Below are positions 40,498 to 60,052 of a DNA stretch of 64,000 nt, one piece after another. How positions within the stretch are numbered: position 1 is the first letter of the stretch; every line of letters begins with the position of its first letter. Below the pieces are notes generated by a model. That model ran no database searches, had not been told where the DNA came from, and was given only the letters and a program-made list of their open reading frames with translations. The stretch lies in sequence record NC_010324.1; one strand, 5' to 3'. Both the position numbers and the translations under genes were made by a program. Source of the DNA: Escherichia phage phiEco32.

Positions 40498-40722
40498 TTA
40501 GATACCTTTAAGTTTAAGAATTTCGTTACGAGTTTTTTGAATCTGAGCTTCAATTTCGAAGTAGTCGTTGAACGCGTCGTTCTCTACTTCATCGGATGGT
40601 GCATCAATCAGACCGAAAGCGAACGGATACAGCTTTCGCTGCTCCGTTACCAATTCGATATGAACTCCTATATAATATTGTAGGAGAGTAATCTTCGGTT
40701 TCTTAGGAACCAGATTTGACAT
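40498..40722 (-). CDS. hypothetical small acidic protein
   Basis: 74 aa; 2 nt after the ATP-grasp start. Confidence 0.35.
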   Translation of the reverse strand: MSNLVPKKPKITLLQYYIGVHIELVTEQRKLYPFAFGLIDAPSDEVENDAFNDYFEIEAQIQKTRNEILKLKGI

Positions 40723-40936
40723 GAGGTTCTACCTTAATGCCTTTGATTTTTACATAATCAGCAAGTACGTTGTTGATCACCGTTGGGAAAGGAACCTCAA
40801 CCTGTGTTTCAAGTACTTGACCAATACCAGCTTGCATCCACTTTTGGATTGCACGAAGGTTATCACATCCTGTGCTCGTCATCGGGATACGTCGAGTAGT
40901 TACAACGTTATCCAGCATCATCTTACGAATTTCCAT
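40703..40936 (-). CDS. hypothetical protein
   Basis: 77 aa; ATG follows the upstream stop by 2 nt. Confidence 0.4.
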   Translation of the reverse strand: MEIRKMMLDNVVTTRRIPMTSTGCDNLRAIQKWMQAGIGQVLETQVEVPFPTVINNVLADYVKIKGIKVEPHVKSGS

Positions 40937-40938
40937 AC

Positions 40939-42969
40939 TTAACCTCTATTCAATGAACATTTAGGAGAATTACAATAAACTTGATTCATAGAACCAAGCG
41001 TACAACTTTCAGCATCGCGCCACGGAATCTGCTTAAAACACTCTGAGCAGTACCCGAGGGTTGACCACATTGCTTTGGTGAAGTCAGTGCTTCGGTTTCC
41101 GTCGAAGCTGACGACAGTTTTGCGGAGAGCTGTTCGTGATTCAGGAAACACACCTGCTTTCTCAGCAGGTTCCTCCTTTTTTGGCTTAGTCGAGATTGCA
41201 AAAATACTGTTGCTACGTTTCTCAACATAAGCATCAACAACATCCTCCAGAGTGATGCCTGTCTGTTTCGCTGAGGAAGGTAATACAGTCATACGACCGA
41301 TCATATCTTCAGTTACACGTAAAGCGAATTCAGGACGACGGGCGTTTGTTGTATCTGTTGCTTTAATCCAGACATAACCATCTTTGATCGTAGCATTAGA
41401 TACTTTCTTCTTTACTTCTACAGCGCAGACTTTACAGATATCTTCACCACGAAGACGACTAAGTTCATCATCGAACTCATTCTCTGTTTTAACTTCACCG
41501 CAGATTTCACAAACACCAATAGGAGTTTCCTCCTCTTCTTCCTCTTTAGGTTTAGTCAAACCTTCCAGACATTCAGGATGCCAATAGCACTGATATGCGA
41601 AGACTGCTTTAGGTGCATCCTTCCAATCAATGTGCTTATCACAACCACCACAATCACCATGAGAGTGCGCTTCCCAGAATTTACGAGTGATAGTAACACC
41701 ATTCTTGTTGACGAAACTATCATTCATATCAAAAGGGATATCATCATCGAAGTCAGCAGTAGTTGACTCAGGCTCCTTTTTCTCCAGAGATGGGTCAACA
41801 AAACGACCTGCTGTGATCACTAAACGGACCATAGCATTGACTTCGGAGATGCAGGATACTGTCCCACGGTAAACAATTTTAGGGTCTTTCAGTGCATCCT
41901 GATAAGCCTTAATGTCTACGTTATGAACATCACCTTCGATATACTCTTGAGACTTCTCATCGTAGATATAGCCAATCATCTTACCACGAGAAGGAACAGC
42001 ACCAGCAGTTGCATAAGGAACAAACTCATGCGGAGTGATTTCCACAGTCATATCGCGGCGAATATCAATGTTTCGATCGCTTGCGATTTTGTTTTGACTT
42101 ACCACTGCGTTTCTTCGACGAACGTCTGCCGCTGTCACTCCCGGCTTCGTGTCGTAAGGATTGCTTGTATTGCTTTTTGAGGAACTTTGATAGTTGCTTT
42201 GGCTGTAGTTGTTCGAGTAATAACTGGCCCAACGATTGACTACCGTAAAAACCGGAAGCTCGTGGGCGACCTCTTCAACCAGAGTCATACTATTGTTTGA
42301 CATATCAAAGATATATTCTGTACCAACTTTACATTCAAAATGCTCATCAATACGGTTCTTGTGAGATCTAGAACGCTTCAGAATCCACATCAACATATCT
42401 TCTTCAGAAGCACCAAACCAATCCCTGTTACAACGTGCGAGGTGGAATGGACGCTCTTCGTTACGGATGATATGAAGACGGTTATCAGAAGCATCATGCC
42501 AGATTAAGGTGAAAGCACCATCCAGCTTTTGAATAGTCTCTGCTGCACCAATAGTGTTAATAGAGTGGCAGATGTTCTCACTGTCTACCTCGAAGTTTTT
42601 GCTGTCAGGTAACAGATCTTGGTCCATCAAGGTTCCGTTATGAACCAGAGTGATGTTACCATGTTGGAAAGGATGGGCGTTCTTGGCGTTAACTGCACCT
42701 TTCGTTGCATGACGGCTGTGACCAACAATCCATGAAGGCGCTACAGTGTACGCTGTTTCGCCAGTGGTATGCTTCTTGTACTCATCTTGTAGGATGAATG
42801 CGAAAGAAGGAAGAGCTTCTTTATAAGTGAAGACTTCCTTAGTGCTTTTACGCTGACCAAAGATACCGGAGGAATGTTGTCCTCGGAATACTCCAGCATA
42901 AAAGAGTTGGTTGAATACGTCTAAATCAGTGCTTGACAGATTACCGCCAGCTAATACGATGCCACAAAT
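40939..42969 (-). CDS. class-II (Ntn) glutamine amidotransferase domain fused to a Cys-rich zinc-ribbon C-terminal region; non-canonical ATT start
   Basis: Track ORF (start 42630) extended 339 nt upstream in frame to ATT 42969 (TAG stop two codons further up). N-terminus MCGIVLAGGNLSSTDLDVFNQLFYAGVFRGQHSSGIF matches PurF/GlmS/AsnB (MCGIV...RG-D-AGI). AGGTGG SD 8 nt upstream. C-terminal half has HGDCGGCDKH, CEICG...CKVC, CSECF...CNSPKC. Confidence 0.7.
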   Translation of the reverse strand: MCGIVLAGGNLSSTDLDVFNQLFYAGVFRGQHSSGIFGQRKSTKEVFTYKEALPSFAFILQDEYKKHTTGETAYTVAPSWIVGHSRHATKGAVNAKNAHPFQHGNITLVHNGTLMDQDLLPDSKNFEVDSENICHSINTIGAAETIQKLDGAFTLIWHDASDNRLHIIRNEERPFHLARCNRDWFGASEEDMLMWILKRSRSHKNRIDEHFECKVGTEYIFDMSNNSMTLVEEVAHELPVFTVVNRWASYYSNNYSQSNYQSSSKSNTSNPYDTKPGVTAADVRRRNAVVSQNKIASDRNIDIRRDMTVEITPHEFVPYATAGAVPSRGKMIGYIYDEKSQEYIEGDVHNVDIKAYQDALKDPKIVYRGTVSCISEVNAMVRLVITAGRFVDPSLEKKEPESTTADFDDDIPFDMNDSFVNKNGVTITRKFWEAHSHGDCGGCDKHIDWKDAPKAVFAYQCYWHPECLEGLTKPKEEEEEETPIGVCEICGEVKTENEFDDELSRLRGEDICKVCAVEVKKKVSNATIKDGYVWIKATDTTNARRPEFALRVTEDMIGRMTVLPSSAKQTGITLEDVVDAYVEKRSNSIFAISTKPKKEEPAEKAGVFPESRTALRKTVVSFDGNRSTDFTKAMWSTLGYCSECFKQIPWRDAESCTLGSMNQVYCNSPKCSLNRG

Positions 42970-43048
42970 TTTCTAATCCACCTGAAGGGTAAACCCTTTC
43001 ATCTAATTAACCTTTAAATTGTGCCCCTTTATCAGAGGCACCCATTGA

Positions 43049-44152
43049 TTACAGCGCTTGCTCTAACTGATTTTCCAGATGGTCTGGAATGTACCCTGTG
43101 ATATTGCTATCACTGTGACCTGACTCGCGTAGTAAGTCAAAAATAGCACGGATACGCTGTTCTGGAGCGTGTCTTACTTGAGATAGGTCTGCTGTACGAA
43201 GCATAACCAGAATCTCTTGGTACAAATTGTTAGCGTTCCCTCGGACATATCCAAGGAATCCATAGAAGTCTGACATATGACGTAAGTCAACAAGAACATC
43301 TCCGTTGGAGTTAGTTCTACGTAAACGAATACGACCAGACTGTTCTACTTCATGAGAACGGCAATACAAAACATCACGGGCCATACAATACCCTGAATGC
43401 AAATCAGATTCATCCAGATTGTAATCTAGAGGAAGATAAGGAAGCATTGGGGCGAATCGTACAGTATTTAAGTGCTCAATAAACTGATCATTGCTCATAT
43501 CTGCATTATCTAGAGCCAGCTTCTTCAACATCAAGAAGCGGTTAACCAGATTGAGAAGTTGACCACGTTTCCACTTAGGCTCACTGATACGGAACTCAAT
43601 TGAACCGTATTGGGCAAGTGGCAGAAGGTTCAGGGATGTGTACTTATCCCATGAACGAACCAGACGGTTGAAGAACTCTTCATCGTCGTAGTTAAATGCG
43701 TCAGAGGCATTCATTACCTGTGCTTGTACCACTGCAAAAGCAGGGCAGAAGTTGCTACGGTAACGATGGTAGCCTGAACACTTGAACAACATCTTTTCAT
43801 AGAAGGTCCAAGCGAGAATGGTTTTCTTGAGGATATTACTATCAGCATCCCTCATATCCATATGAACGTGAGTAGAGCAACGCCAAGTCCCCTCAGCGTG
43901 CGATTCAGCTACTGCTTCACTCAGGTTGTTGATAGCGTCTAACAACTCCTGTCCGTTGTAAGGCCGTGAACATACCATTTCACAACCATTACGCAGGGAA
44001 CCATCCTCTGTACAATCCCACATATCTGCTTCGATATGATCGGAACCTTCGAGTTCAAGTTCAATACCGACACCGCACTGAAGTGCAATTGAACTATGCG
44101 CCTCAGTTAAATGACCTTCTCGATATCCAAAAGTTTGCGCTACAGTTGTCAT
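43049..44152 (-). CDS. glutamine-synthetase-fold carboxylate-amine ligase (amidoligase-like)
   Basis: 367 aa; metal/ATP-site-like motifs QCGVGIELELEG and WRCSTHVHMDM; neighbours a GATase-like and an AIG2/GGCT-like gene. Confidence 0.5.
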   Translation of the reverse strand: MTTVAQTFGYREGHLTEAHSSIALQCGVGIELELEGSDHIEADMWDCTEDGSLRNGCEMVCSRPYNGQELLDAINNLSEAVAESHAEGTWRCSTHVHMDMRDADSNILKKTILAWTFYEKMLFKCSGYHRYRSNFCPAFAVVQAQVMNASDAFNYDDEEFFNRLVRSWDKYTSLNLLPLAQYGSIEFRISEPKWKRGQLLNLVNRFLMLKKLALDNADMSNDQFIEHLNTVRFAPMLPYLPLDYNLDESDLHSGYCMARDVLYCRSHEVEQSGRIRLRRTNSNGDVLVDLRHMSDFYGFLGYVRGNANNLYQEILVMLRTADLSQVRHAPEQRIRAIFDLLRESGHSDSNITGYIPDHLENQLEQAL

Positions 44153-52796: not shown

Positions 52797-52873
52797 TGGC
52801 GCACCCTACAGGATTCGAACCTGTAACCGACGGATTAGAAATCCGATGTTCTGTCCAATTGAACTAAGGGCGC
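52797..52873 (-). tRNA. tRNA-Arg (anticodon UCU), CCA encoded
   Basis: Minus-strand cloverleaf: acceptor GCGCCCT/AGGGTGC (one G-U), D-arm GTTC-AATTGGACA-GAAC, anticodon loop UUUCUAA, T-arm ACAGG-TTCGAAT-CCTGT, discriminator G then CCA. Acceptor and T-arm match E. coli argU from memory. Confidence 0.85.
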
Positions 52874-57062: not shown

Positions 57063-57506
57063 CTACTTAACCCTTGCCTCTTTGATGGGGTCAATGTATT
57101 TCTCAACGCCCCACTTGTGTTTACTATCTGCGTAGAAAACATCAGGTGCACACTGGCTTGTCTTAGGGAAAGCCTGAGGGTCTTTCGTGCTACCCTTAAA
57201 CTTCTGTTTACCACGGGTGCGACCATTACAGAAGATTTCTAACTTCTTCTCTTCTTCTGTTTTAGCGCCCCCGCTCTGTAACAAAGAACGTTTATGATCA
57301 GCTAACAACAACGCATCAGCACGATGGACACGATGGCCTACACGTTTTGCCACACTGGAAGGAACAAGGGATTCAGCCTCAGCCTTTGCAGCACGACGTT
57401 TTAAACTACGCTTACTAACGTGATTAGTTGCCTTCGGTTTCTCTTTCTCTAGTTCAGAGATAGCAAAACAACGCCCGCCCTTCATGCTGATTTTAGATTT
57501 AGCCAC
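57063..57506 (-). CDS. hypothetical basic protein
   Basis: 147 aa, Lys/Arg-rich; followed by a hairpin and the conserved AGTACTAAAAGAGG element. Confidence 0.4.
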   Translation of the reverse strand: MAKSKISMKGGRCFAISELEKEKPKATNHVSKRSLKRRAAKAEAESLVPSSVAKRVGHRVHRADALLLADHKRSLLQSGGAKTEEEKKLEIFCNGRTRGKQKFKGSTKDPQAFPKTSQCAPDVFYADSKHKWGVEKYIDPIKEARVK

Positions 57507-57575
57507 AATCTTATTCCTTTTAGTGATAAGTTATATCGGGCAAGCCCATCAAGTCGATAGGCTTGAACAAATAAC

Positions 57576-57785
57576 TTAATCGAGTAAACTAAATGACTTC
57601 CAACTACGTATTAATATTTCGCCGTCATCCATCCTTACTGATATTTTAAGTAATTTCTTATTGCAACTGCTAACCGTTACGATCGCACCAGTAACACACT
57701 TACCCTTATTATTGTAAAGGTACATTGCACGACGGCCTAACAGACGAGATGGCGCTTTCTTAAATTCTGAAATGTTAGTGATCAT
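57576..57785 (-). CDS. hypothetical small protein (possible distant family member)
   Basis: 69 aa; similar size and beta-rich composition to the 49.6-55.2 kb family, but the shared motif is not clear. Confidence 0.3.
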   Translation of the reverse strand: MITNISEFKKAPSRLLGRRAMYLYNNKGKCVTGAIVTVSSCNKKLLKISVRMDDGEILIRSWKSFSLLD

Positions 57786-58002
57786 AATGCTTGATACCTT
57801 TGAATGTGTTCAATACGGGTTGATTGAGCAAATGACGCTTTAACAGCCATTTTCCTAACTTCTTCTTTACGCTGGTTAGTGTGTACAGTATCCCAATGAT
57901 TGTTATCACGTTGGCGCTGTAATATCTTACTACATTTTCGATGGTTTCCCGTGCTGCGATGTTTCTCACAAATAGGACACTTGCCAAAATTGCTACTGAA
58001 TA

Positions 58003-58230
58003 TCATTTTCTCAATCCCAACTTTCTTAAGATACGGCCTAACGTTGTTTCTTGCGTGATAATATAGCTGATCGCTTCACGTTCCAACGTTTCGATCTTCA
58101 TTGGCGACGGATACCATTCACCGGTAATAACACATTTACATTCAACGCCATACTTTTTAGATAGGCGGTAATGTTGACCGTTGACAAGATTCCTATAAAT
58201 CGTGGTATGCGTAATTAACATGATCATCAC
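58003..58230 (-). CDS. hypothetical protein
   Basis: 75 aa ORF in the GC-richer segment. Confidence 0.35.
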   Translation of the reverse strand: MMIMLITHTTIYRNLVNGQHYRLSKKYGVECKCVITGEWYPSPMKIETLEREAISYIITQETTLGRILRKLGLRK

Positions 58231-58332
58231 CTTTGATTAAATTCTTTGATTAATGCACTGAATCAATGCACTGATAAAAGAAAAGGCGCTACCCGTTAAG
58301 ATAGCGCCTTATGTTTATTCAAATTGTCTTAC

Positions 58333-59232
58333 TTATGCCGCCTGACGTGCCGCCATAATTTCAGCCGCTTTACGCAATACTTCTTCCTCTTCTGCTTTCG
58401 CCGCTTGTTCGGTACGGGTAGCAACCGTTGAAGAGATACGACCGCGCAGGCTTTCTAACTTCTCCTGCATAGTTGCAATGGTCTTTTCCATTTCATCAGC
58501 GTATGAATCGAGTGATTCTAATTCCTTGCTTGATGCGTTCATCAGATAATCATCTGAGATCGCTACCGTCGAGGCCGTGACTTTCTTGATGAGTGAATCA
58601 AAGGACTTTTTAACCTTCCCAACTTCTTCACTCAGGGCGATAGTGTTATCGCTAGTTGCGCCGTTGCGCTCATCAGCCAGTAATTTGGCTTCAATACGGA
58701 TTGCATTCAAGCGTTCAACTAAAGCGTAAATATCCTGATTAAAATCTTCCTTGTTTTTCGCCGGAATTTGCAGGTGTGCCGCCACGTTGTCATTACAACC
58801 CTTGTAAAAGTTAGGGTTATCGACTTCAATTTCACGGCCTAAAGCAAAGTTTTCGAAAGCGTTTGACCAGCGAGCGCGGTTTTGTTCCATTTTGGCCTTA
58901 ATTTGCGCTTCTTTCGCGTCTTCTTTAGCTTTCGCCTCACCTTCCAGATTAATCCACTTTTTACGACCATTTGCCGCATCGGTGTTAAACTTGATAGGAG
59001 TTAAGAAAGTAATTGCAGTGGCAATCACATCCATATCACGAAAACGTTCAGTTAACAAGAAGTCAACCGCCGTCTGCAATACGTCCAGCTTTTTACCGTT
59101 ACTGCGGAAGTGCTGTAAGTGCCCTAACAGGAAGTTAGAAACATCTTGTTTGATCGCCGCGTTATTGCTACGAATGTTGTTAGCCAGTGCGTTAAAACCA
59201 GATTCGTTAACCAGAGTAAAGATTTTAGCCAT
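58333..59232 (-). CDS. hypothetical coiled-coil protein
   Basis: Start set to ATG 59232 (MAKIFTL...) with AAGGTGA SD 5 nt upstream; GC content visibly higher than the phage average. Confidence 0.5.
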   Translation of the reverse strand: MAKIFTLVNESGFNALANNIRSNNAAIKQDVSNFLLGHLQHFRSNGKKLDVLQTAVDFLLTERFRDMDVIATAITFLTPIKFNTDAANGRKKWINLEGEAKAKEDAKEAQIKAKMEQNRARWSNAFENFALGREIEVDNPNFYKGCNDNVAAHLQIPAKNKEDFNQDIYALVERLNAIRIEAKLLADERNGATSDNTIALSEEVGKVKKSFDSLIKKVTASTVAISDDYLMNASSKELESLDSYADEMEKTIATMQEKLESLRGRISSTVATRTEQAAKAEEEEVLRKAAEIMAARQAA

Positions 59233-60052
59233 GATATTCACCTTTCAATTGTAAGGGCGCTATTGCCCCGCTCTCTATGAGCTTGTTTAAGTCACTATTA
59301 ACTTAACTATAACCACTCGTTGTTAAGTAGTTATAGGTAAGCGGGGCGGTCTTATCAGGAGTTAACCTTGCCGCCCCCTTATCCGTGATGTTTCATCTGG
59401 TATCTTTAATTAGTCGCTATAAACGAAGCCGACCTGATAGCGATGATCAATCATCACAATAAGGCAGTGCGTCCGACTCTAATTAGTTACGTTTATTGTA
59501 ACCGTCGGCAATATCGTCTACTTTGCTTTCGCTCTCGCCTATCCTTTTGTATCAACTCTCAATCACTAGCCATCGCCCACAACGGGATGCTATTGTGAAA
59601 GAGTCATTGACCGTCTAATGTTCTGACGTTTTATATCTTTCGGCAAGTTTACTACATAAACCGACTATGTACTTTCATCTTGTGATGAATCTCAAGCCGT
59701 TCACATCGTAAACGTTCACACTAAACCTTATTGTTAAATAGCAATTTGCCACTTTTTAACCACTCCCCGCCGCCCTCAATTGGGCGTTAATTCTTCGGGC
59801 TTGCCTACCCTGATTAACTTCTTTCACTGTAGCGCCTTGTTAGCGATGGCCGCCGCTACCCTTAACCGTGGGCGATTAGCTTAAGCCTTTGCGTGCACTC
59901 AATGAATCCGTTTATCAGTGGTGACGTTTCCAGTAAGGGAATGTAAAACTGTTTACCCTGATAATTTAGGGAGTCTTACGCCGTTTTATCTGGTATGCTT
60001 TCCGATGGTTATTATCATCAAGCATATTCAACCGATATAGGAGAATGTTTAA

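Follow-up and report, generated by a model that had tools for sequence, protein, structure and literature searches.

Initiation of translation at AUU or AUC is regarded as a rare curiosity in bacteria, for which infC and pcnB are the Escherichia coli reference cases, and such start codons are ignored by gene callers. Here, we report the analysis of a 64,000-nucleotide (nt) stretch of DNA from Escherichia phage phiEco32 (NC_010324.1; hereafter, the window), with an emphasis on the gene for a class-II glutamine amidotransferase that occupies positions 40939–42969 of the minus strand, stop codon included. We consider it very likely that this gene is translated from an AUU codon (42969–42967) and that its leader is an instance of a recurrent initiation module of phage class-II amidotransferase genes. 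As a phenomenon, this is a further case of non-canonical AUU/AUC initiation, known from infC and pcnB; what is new is the recurrence across a phage enzyme family, together with a coupled, positioned hairpin.

The AUU/AUC codon of infC is the target of autoregulation by initiation factor 3 (IF3) (PMC5499595). At the thrS-infC junction, reinitiation makes about the same contribution as de novo initiation, and AUU lowers reporter output several-fold compared with AUG (PMC3592434). In pcnB, which encodes poly(A) polymerase I, the AUU start keeps a potentially harmful enzyme at a low level (Binns and Masters 2002, cited in PMC3592434). The phage locus resembles infC in the conservation of the AUU/AUC pair across orthologs, in the presence of a good Shine-Dalgarno (SD) sequence about 8 nt upstream, and in a stop codon placed one codon before the start (UAA GGU AUU in infC, UAG AAA AUU in the phage). 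It differs in that the infC AUU senses the product of its own gene, whereas the phage gene encodes a metabolic enzyme that is not known to be linked to IF3, and in that the infC leader lies inside the thrS coding sequence. The pcnB gene likewise combines an AUU start with an SD (GAGG, 6 nt upstream) but is a single chromosomal gene, without recurrent AUU/AUC usage across a family.

At the protein level, the closest described systems are GlmS, PurF and AsnB, in which the N-terminal cysteine directly follows the initiator methionine. They share this feature and the conserved R, N-G and D motifs with the phage protein, whose C-terminal part, however, is different and Cys-rich, and whose gene adjoins amidoligase and ATP-grasp genes. 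It also differs from Bacillus subtilis PurF, the propeptide of which is cleaved, because an in-frame TAG two codons before the phage Cys1 excludes a propeptide. At the RNA level, the structured standby sites of the ribosome standby model, as well as mRNAs that dock on the platform of the 30S subunit, feature a hairpin directly 5' of an accessible SD. The phage hairpin, located 5' of the SD where the ribosome footprint ends, would be similar to these elements, and no description of standby-type elements paired specifically with AUU/AUC starts was found in the literature searched.

The relevant frame of the minus strand reads, 5' to 3', TAG (42975–42973), AAA (42972–42970), ATT (42969–42967), TGT (42966–42964), GGC, ATC, GTA, and comprises 676 codons including the AUU start. 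The mechanically generated list of open reading frames (ORFs) instead contains a 563-amino acid ORF that begins at TTG 42630 (42630–42628), a false start that ORF callers and several GenBank records have adopted, although the frame remains open for 113 more codons upstream. Between the TAG at 42975–42973 and TTG 42630, there is no in-frame ATG, GTG or TTG, and from the TAG to the Cys1 codon, ATT alone is plausible as a start. The initial annotation had correctly described the 113 open codons bounded by TAG, but had placed the TAG two codons above the ATT, where a single codon (AAA) intervenes. Its statement that the frame lacks ATG, GTG and TTG holds below the TAG and overlooked an in-frame ATG above it (43002–43000), from which the minus strand reads ATG AAA GGG TTT ACC CTT CAG GTG GAT TAG AAA ATT TGT.

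The full-length protein matches the Pfam families GATase_6 (55 bits, cutoff 27) and GATase_7 (27.4 bits, cutoff 25). The TTG-truncated protein scores 23.6 bits against GATase_6, below the cutoff, in agreement with the earlier claim that a TTG start costs the amidotransferase domain. A search of the Protein Data Bank (PDB) with the single sequence gave no matches; a profile search was needed to reach known structures, and the profile of the homolog alignment matched the glutaminase domains of GlmS (E = 2e-10), PurF and AsnB. Cys1-Gly2 is invariant across all three homolog alignments. R28, N110-G111 and D128 are invariant in the family alignment, and the catalytic motifs line up with YRGYDSAG, VHNG and ETDTE of GlmS, as well as with PurF. 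From established knowledge of GlmS, we take these residues to be the conserved arginine, the asparagine-glycine pair of the oxyanion hole and the aspartate of the glutamine site. The gene accordingly encodes what had been recognized from its N-terminus, a class-II (N-terminal-nucleophile, Ntn) glutamine amidotransferase, its activity being a prediction from sequence. The TGT at 42966–42964 would specify the catalytic Cys1, the N-terminal nucleophile once formylmethionine (fMet) is removed, and the predicted N-terminal peptide beginning at Cys1 is CGIVLAGGNLSSTDLDVFNQLFYAGVFR. The C-terminal third of the protein (window 40939–41700) contains repeated Cys-rich motifs, such as CGGCDKHIDW...CYWHPEC, CEICGE...CKVC and CSECFKQIPW...CNSPKC, which resemble zinc-ribbon modules; the distant homolog on L016 ends with a similar motif.

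Comparison with homologs bears directly on the start codon. Six distant homologs (Proteus P59, Cronobacter GAP52, PKM.Lu.22.1, Salmonella SE131, Aeromonas LAh_9 and E. coli PJNS034) carry ATG in exactly the slot occupied by ATT and read M-C-G-I-V. Over codons 1–113, the ratio of nonsynonymous to synonymous substitution rates (dN/dS) is 0.10 in the comparison with phage KBNP1711 and 0.04 in that with ECBP2, with dS above 1 in both; judging from these substitution patterns, codons 1–113 are translated and subject to strong purifying selection. A search with the 71-nt leader, ATT included, gave matches of 90% identity or more in 97 phage records that had been deposited independently, 67 of them without a single difference. 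The ATT itself is invariant in all 97, which come from three coliphage genera and an Aeromonas phage, so that a sequencing error is excluded. The initial annotation had proposed the AUU start and suggested both an alignment of homologs and a check for an ATG-to-ATT error: the alignment, in which related phages keep ATT and the six distant ones have ATG in the same slot, together with the purifying selection on the 113 codons, bears the proposal out, and the identical ATT in the deposited records settles the matter of the error by comparison. As far as sequence comparison can establish a start, ATT 42969–42967 is confirmed as the point where translation begins.

The elements upstream of the ATT are closely packed. 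The SD, AGGTGG (42983–42978), precedes the ATT by 8 nt, as had been noted; the A-rich spacer between them, ATTAGAAA (42977–42970), ends in the AAA codon and is also found in the unrelated contig L082/L016. The hairpin that had been described as adjoining the SD is located at 42998–42985 and consists of the perfect stem AAGGG (42998–42994) and CCCTT (42989–42985) with the loop TTTA (42993–42990); it is one base away from the SD, and its 3' end is 15 nt upstream of the AUU. These elements lie within a 54-nt leader block (42962–43015, minus strand; AAAGGTTAATTAGATGAAAGGGTTTACCCTTCAGGTGGATTAGAAAATTTGTGG) that Kuravirus, Nieuwekanaalvirus and Suseptimavirus share without a difference; the window itself belongs to a Kuravirus coliphage of the SU10/ES17 type (Gordonclarkvirinae). 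This block ranks 10th of 3,904 identity runs in the 22.8 kb aligned in all three genomes, and the synonymous sites flanking it are saturated between the three genera (dS > 1).

The Aeromonas phage BUCT695 (L010, Grimontviridae) has the same cassette with two substitutions, one in the loop (TTTA to TTAA) and one in the SD (AGGTGG to AGGCGG). Compared with window positions 42950–43020, the leader cassette of this phage is 90% identical at the DNA level, whereas identity between the proteins is about 54% in their first 200 residues. A near-identical cassette in front of a divergent protein implies either extreme constraint or horizontal movement, and the BUCT695 comparison suggests, as an interpretation of the alignment, that a translation-initiation cassette of about 70 nt was transferred horizontally.

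Searches of the leader for other signals were negative. The best matches in an Rfam scan scored 14–17 bits, compared with gathering thresholds of 44–70, and none was accepted; no promoter or terminator on the strand of the gene rose above shuffled sequence. The published phiEco32 gp36 promoters are located elsewhere than the amidotransferase leader (PMC8948821), and the promoter table for phage SU10 has no entry near gene 85. A candidate long-range helix, GUUAAU..GAUG / CAUC..AUUAGC, was rejected (z = -1.0, not kept in BUCT695).

The AUU start of phiEco32 belongs to a family-wide pattern. Together with cultured phages, three scans of the viral contigs in IMG/VR, each based on an alignment from a different clade, yielded 218 unique homologs. 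The codon preceding Cys1 is ATG in 165 of these, ATT in 32, ATC in 10, TTG in 7 and GTG in 4; thus, ATT and ATC account for 42 of the 218 (19%), and ATA or another near-cognate codon was found in the start slot of none of the 218. ATA is missing although ATG to ATA is a transition and the genomes are AT-rich; ATT plus ATC is the same codon pair that has been reported for infC. A canonical in-frame start before the upstream stop is absent in 33 of the 42 ATT/ATC genes. On a neighbor-joining tree, ATT/ATC starts are dispersed, with about 24 parsimony changes compared with a mean of 28.5 for shuffled labels, and the codons interchange between close relatives: L170 (TTG) and L173 (ATT) have identical N-termini and different start codons, and Klebsiella phage Klyazma has ATC where L173 has ATT.

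The leaders of the ATT/ATC genes differ from those of the ATG genes in further respects. Pairing of the SD with the anti-SD is stronger in ATT/ATC than in ATG genes (-7.9 versus -6.5 kcal/mol, p = 4e-4), and ATT/ATC leaders other than that of phiEco32 have GGAG(G) 6–9 nt upstream of the start. The most common codon at position -1 in the ATT/ATC genes is AAA (18 of 42), and the median gap to the upstream gene is 31 nt, compared with 3 nt in ATG genes. General reinitiation from a long upstream ORF was rejected on the last count, the ATT/ATC genes being less coupled than the ATG genes, and the reinitiation at non-canonical codons described in PMC4648390 is eukaryotic and not applicable. Tandem ATT-ATT, ATC-ATT or ATT-ATC at positions -1 and 0 was observed in 15 of the 42 ATT/ATC genes.

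The hairpin upstream of the SD is likewise associated with ATT/ATC starts. We scored hairpins with at least 4 base pairs (bp), a loop of 3–7 nt, a folding free energy (dG) not above -2.5 kcal/mol, and a 3' end 11–17 nt upstream of the start. In the discovery set, such a hairpin is present in 22 of 34 ATT/ATC leaders, 1 of 109 ATG leaders and 0 of 10 GTG/TTG leaders (Fisher p = 2.7e-16), and among genes whose real spacer measures 18 nt or more, the respective fractions are 16/25, 0/46 and 0/3 (p = 6e-10). Shuffling of the 34 ATT/ATC leaders gave a mean of 1.95 hairpins and a maximum of 7. In an independent replication clade, for which the criteria were fixed beforehand, the hairpin was found in 3 of 8 ATT/ATC, 4 of 56 ATG and 0 of 1 GTG/TTG genes (p = 0.036).

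The position of the hairpin is better conserved than its sequence. Among the family hairpins, there are 18 distinct stem sequences; the distance from hairpin to start clusters at 12–15 nt, and that from hairpin to upstream stop varies between 1 and 74 nt. The string from SD to start (CTAGGAGATGAGAAA-ATT) is the same in L060 and L114, and their stems differ (AGACTA/TAGTCT versus ACGAC/GTCGT). In L111, L112, L120, L127 and L132, a GUU triloop is conserved while the stems covary freely. The GUU-loop leaders (n = 5), a subset chosen for having hairpins, show compensatory double changes at five of six stem pairs, with a covariation score of 1.03, compared with 0.39 for shuffles (0 of 500 as high) and at most 0.2 for slid controls. 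The triloop could be a specific recognition element. The module would run, 5' to 3', from a 4–7 bp hairpin with its 3' end 12–15 nt from the start, through a strong SD and an A-rich spacer, to AUU or AUC, and the phiEco32 hairpin, which ends 15 nt before the AUU, is an exact fit. Among cultured phages, the module is also present in Klyazma (GGAGGataatact ATC) and in Pseudomonas phage FBPa8 (GGAGGataaaatt ATT). No prior description of a hairpin-SD-AUU/AUC module across a gene family was found in the literature searched.

Alternatives to the AUU start itself differ in what they require. That the ATT is an ATG-to-ATT error of sequencing or assembly, or a private inactivating mutation of the isolate, would take only a single G-to-T difference, but is effectively refuted by the 97 independent records; moreover, ATT/ATC recurs in metagenomic and cultured relatives, and ATA, ACG, AAG and the other codons expected from random loss of a start are absent. 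That the gene starts at TTG 42630 or another downstream codon, with the 113 upstream codons an untranslated relic and the amidotransferase domain dead, is the reading of the gene callers and of the records for phages ES17, Paul and NJ01, and the 63.8 kDa listed for the SU10 protein would agree with it, although that value was taken from the database model rather than measured. We regard this reading as scarcely credible, given a dN/dS of 0.04–0.10 over codons 1–113 with synonymous sites saturated, the invariance of Cys1, R28, N110-G111 and D128, the loss of the Pfam match upon truncation, and homologs that begin M-C-G at the aligned position. Because the ATG at 43002, the TAG and the amidotransferase share one frame, readthrough of the UAG could also be envisaged, with a 12-residue propeptide (MKGFTLQVDxKI) removed autocatalytically to expose Cys1; some class-II amidotransferases do have a propeptide that is processed, that of B. 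subtilis PurF having 11 residues. Such readthrough is very improbable: the window encodes no suppressor tRNA, its sole tRNA gene being that for tRNA-Arg(TCT) (52797–52873, minus strand), and UAG is not efficiently suppressed in natural E. coli hosts. Furthermore, other ATT/ATC lineages lack an upstream ATG, 33 of the 42 ATT/ATC genes have no canonical start of any kind before the in-frame stop, the distant homologs have ATG directly on the ATT slot and no propeptide, and the SD is placed for the ATT.

Two further alternatives accept the AUU and concern how it is reached. The ATG at 43002 opens a nine-codon mini-ORF (42973–43002, minus strand; MKGFTLQVD) that spans the hairpin and the SD and ends at the TAG (42975–42973), 3 nt before the AUU. 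Ribosomes starting at this AUG could terminate at the UAG and reinitiate 3 nt downstream at the AUU with the help of AGGUGG, a coupling that could accompany direct initiation and need not replace it. The AUU would in that case be used chiefly by ribosomes that have just terminated, as at the thrS-infC junction. In favor of coupling, an SD-like AAAGG lies 8 nt upstream of the AUG, and the invariant block begins exactly at this AAAGG; the UAG AAA AUU geometry equals that of the infC junction, so that some reinitiation is possible in this lineage; BUCT695 keeps the mini-ORF in frame (MKGLTLQAD, followed by the stop), and L082 has a four-codon TTG...TAG in the same register. However, the BUCT695 mini-ORF ATG has no SD and both substitutions within the mini-ORF are non-synonymous; the mini-ORF is absent from other ATT/ATC lineages, most of which have no mini-ORF; and the longer gaps to the upstream gene point to less coupling in ATT/ATC than in ATG genes. 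In addition, GAP52 contains GATGAAAGG too, but with the ATG out of frame and with the sequence acting as the SD of a normal ATG start; on this comparison, the mini-ORF ATG looks like a remnant of an ancestral GATGAAAGGA SD region present in GAP52. Mini-ORF coupling is, in our estimate, unlikely. Slightly less likely still is that the AUU start is real and the hairpin irrelevant to initiation, being an element of mRNA stability or processing or a passenger of the ATT/ATC cassette. This reading draws on the unexceptional energy of the phiEco32 hairpin, on the longer intergenic spacers of ATT/ATC genes, which leave room for hairpins, on the SD-to-start motifs that are common among leaders and suggest shared descent, and on the modest effect in replication. 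It is opposed by the fixed distance of the hairpin to the start against the variable distance to the upstream stop, by the absence of such hairpins from all 46 ATG genes with comparable spacers, and by compensatory stem substitutions with the position kept.

Direct initiation at AUU within a hairpin-containing module remains the preferred reading, and the following points weigh against it. The hairpin of the window is, by itself, unremarkable compared with shuffled sequence (-5.4 kcal/mol, z = -1.2), and an alternative, G·U-rich fold that would sequester the SD (GGUUUACC/GGUGGAUU) has a similar energy; this fold was rejected because two mismatches in BUCT695 indicate that it is not conserved. 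No SD-abutting hairpin was seen by eye in the E. coli infC and pcnB leaders. The distance window of 11–17 nt was chosen after the first data set, and the support from replication stands at p = 0.036, with a modest effect of the hairpin in that clade. The ATT/ATC leaders may share an ancestral, horizontally spreading cassette rather than being independent inventions: L082 shares an 18-mer with the window, and the cassette is complete in BUCT695, the protein of which is nonetheless closer to those of ATG-type phages (64% identical to GAP52). Finally, the SU10 proteomics searched the 63.8-kDa, TTG-truncated model, such that N-terminal peptides were not reportable.

Public records treat the gene inconsistently. 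The coding sequence (CDS) starts at ATT, with a length of 2031 nt and without comment, in the records of SU10 (2014) and of the BASEL phage Bas90, and Table S1 of the SU10 paper lists gp85 as 677 amino acids. By contrast, the CDS begins at the internal TTG in ES17, Paul and NJ01, at an internal ATG at codon 11 in ECBP2 and EK010, and still further downstream in KBNP1711 and EP335; the amidotransferase CDSs of Klyazma (OP125547) and FBPa8 (ON857932) are truncated in annotation as well. The truncated records begin at a downstream TTG, GTG or ATG and lose the catalytic Cys1 together with up to 113 residues. In the proteomics of SU10 infection, the protein was detected with 9 peptides (PMC4281155), and Table 2 of that paper gives gp85 at 63.8 kDa, the size of the 563-amino acid truncated model. 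Set against the 677 amino acids of Table S1, this value indicates that the mass spectrometry database apparently did not include the N-terminal 113 residues, and a search on the truncated model was unable to define the N-terminus. No discussion of the ATT codon of the Kuravirus amidotransferase was found in the literature searched. The ATT start in Kuraviruses is, then, already on record in some annotations, and it is the family-level pattern that is new.

The amidotransferase gene lies in a cluster of amidoligase and ATP-grasp genes. Directly upstream, on the same strand, is a gene for an Amidoligase_2 protein (43049–44152), the TAA stop of which is at 43051–43049. It is followed by an intergenic hairpin, GUGCCUCU-GAUAA-AGGGGCAC (43021–43041, minus strand), with compensatory changes between genera: the stem GTGCC/GGCAC is replaced by GCGC/GCGC in ECBP2 and EK010. 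As this hairpin has no T-run, it is not a classical (intrinsic) terminator, and it may be an element of mRNA processing or stability. Directly downstream of the amidotransferase gene, the small gene at 40703–40936 (minus strand) matches Pfam DUF7195 with 62 bits. Elsewhere in the window, positions 57196–59773 contain the longest three-way identical runs in the comparison with KBNP1711 and ECBP2 (106, 93, 73, 72, 70, 62 and 57 nt), far above the genome average of 73% three-way identity; these runs are probably early-region regulatory DNA or RNA.

The features described above suggest a mechanism in which the AGGUGG SD, 8 nt upstream of the start, would recruit the 30S subunit and the AUU would be read by the initiator tRNA as a near-cognate codon. 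Removal of fMet would then leave Cys1 as the free N-terminal nucleophile that the enzyme requires; that removal of the methionine exposes Cys1 follows from the specificity of methionine aminopeptidase. With a weak codon discriminated against by IF3, commitment to the start codon, rather than ribosome binding, would be limiting, by analogy with infC and pcnB, and the combination of a strong SD with a weak codon would result in low or condition-dependent synthesis of a glutamine-hydrolyzing enzyme. We infer from the parallel with infC that expression may be low or IF3-sensitive. The hairpin borders the ribosome footprint on its 5' side; it may leave the SD exposed and in register, stack against the SD helix, or make contact with the 30S platform by docking there.

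Recurrence of the hairpin-SD-AUU/AUC arrangement in about a fifth of the related phage genes makes it look like a selected way to set the translation of this enzyme. More tentatively, and with considerable doubt, the arrangement might represent a dedicated, previously undescribed type of initiation region, in which a helix 12–15 nt from the P-site codon enables or controls the use of AUU/AUC and ties synthesis of the enzyme to IF3, ppGpp or nutrient state. If so, the helix could work either through stacking against the SD:anti-SD duplex or through docking at the site of IF3 action, the 30S platform. In many public records, the gene is annotated too short and the catalytic cysteine is lost. The hairpin-SD-AUU/AUC combination provides a search signature usable in other gene families. 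Within a single phage enzyme family, AUU/AUC starts are present in 42 of 218 members, from coliphages and phages of Klebsiella, Pseudomonas and Aeromonas to many uncultured phages, and with its many combinations of hairpin, SD and start codon, this family constitutes a natural replicated experiment for testing how weak start codons are used.

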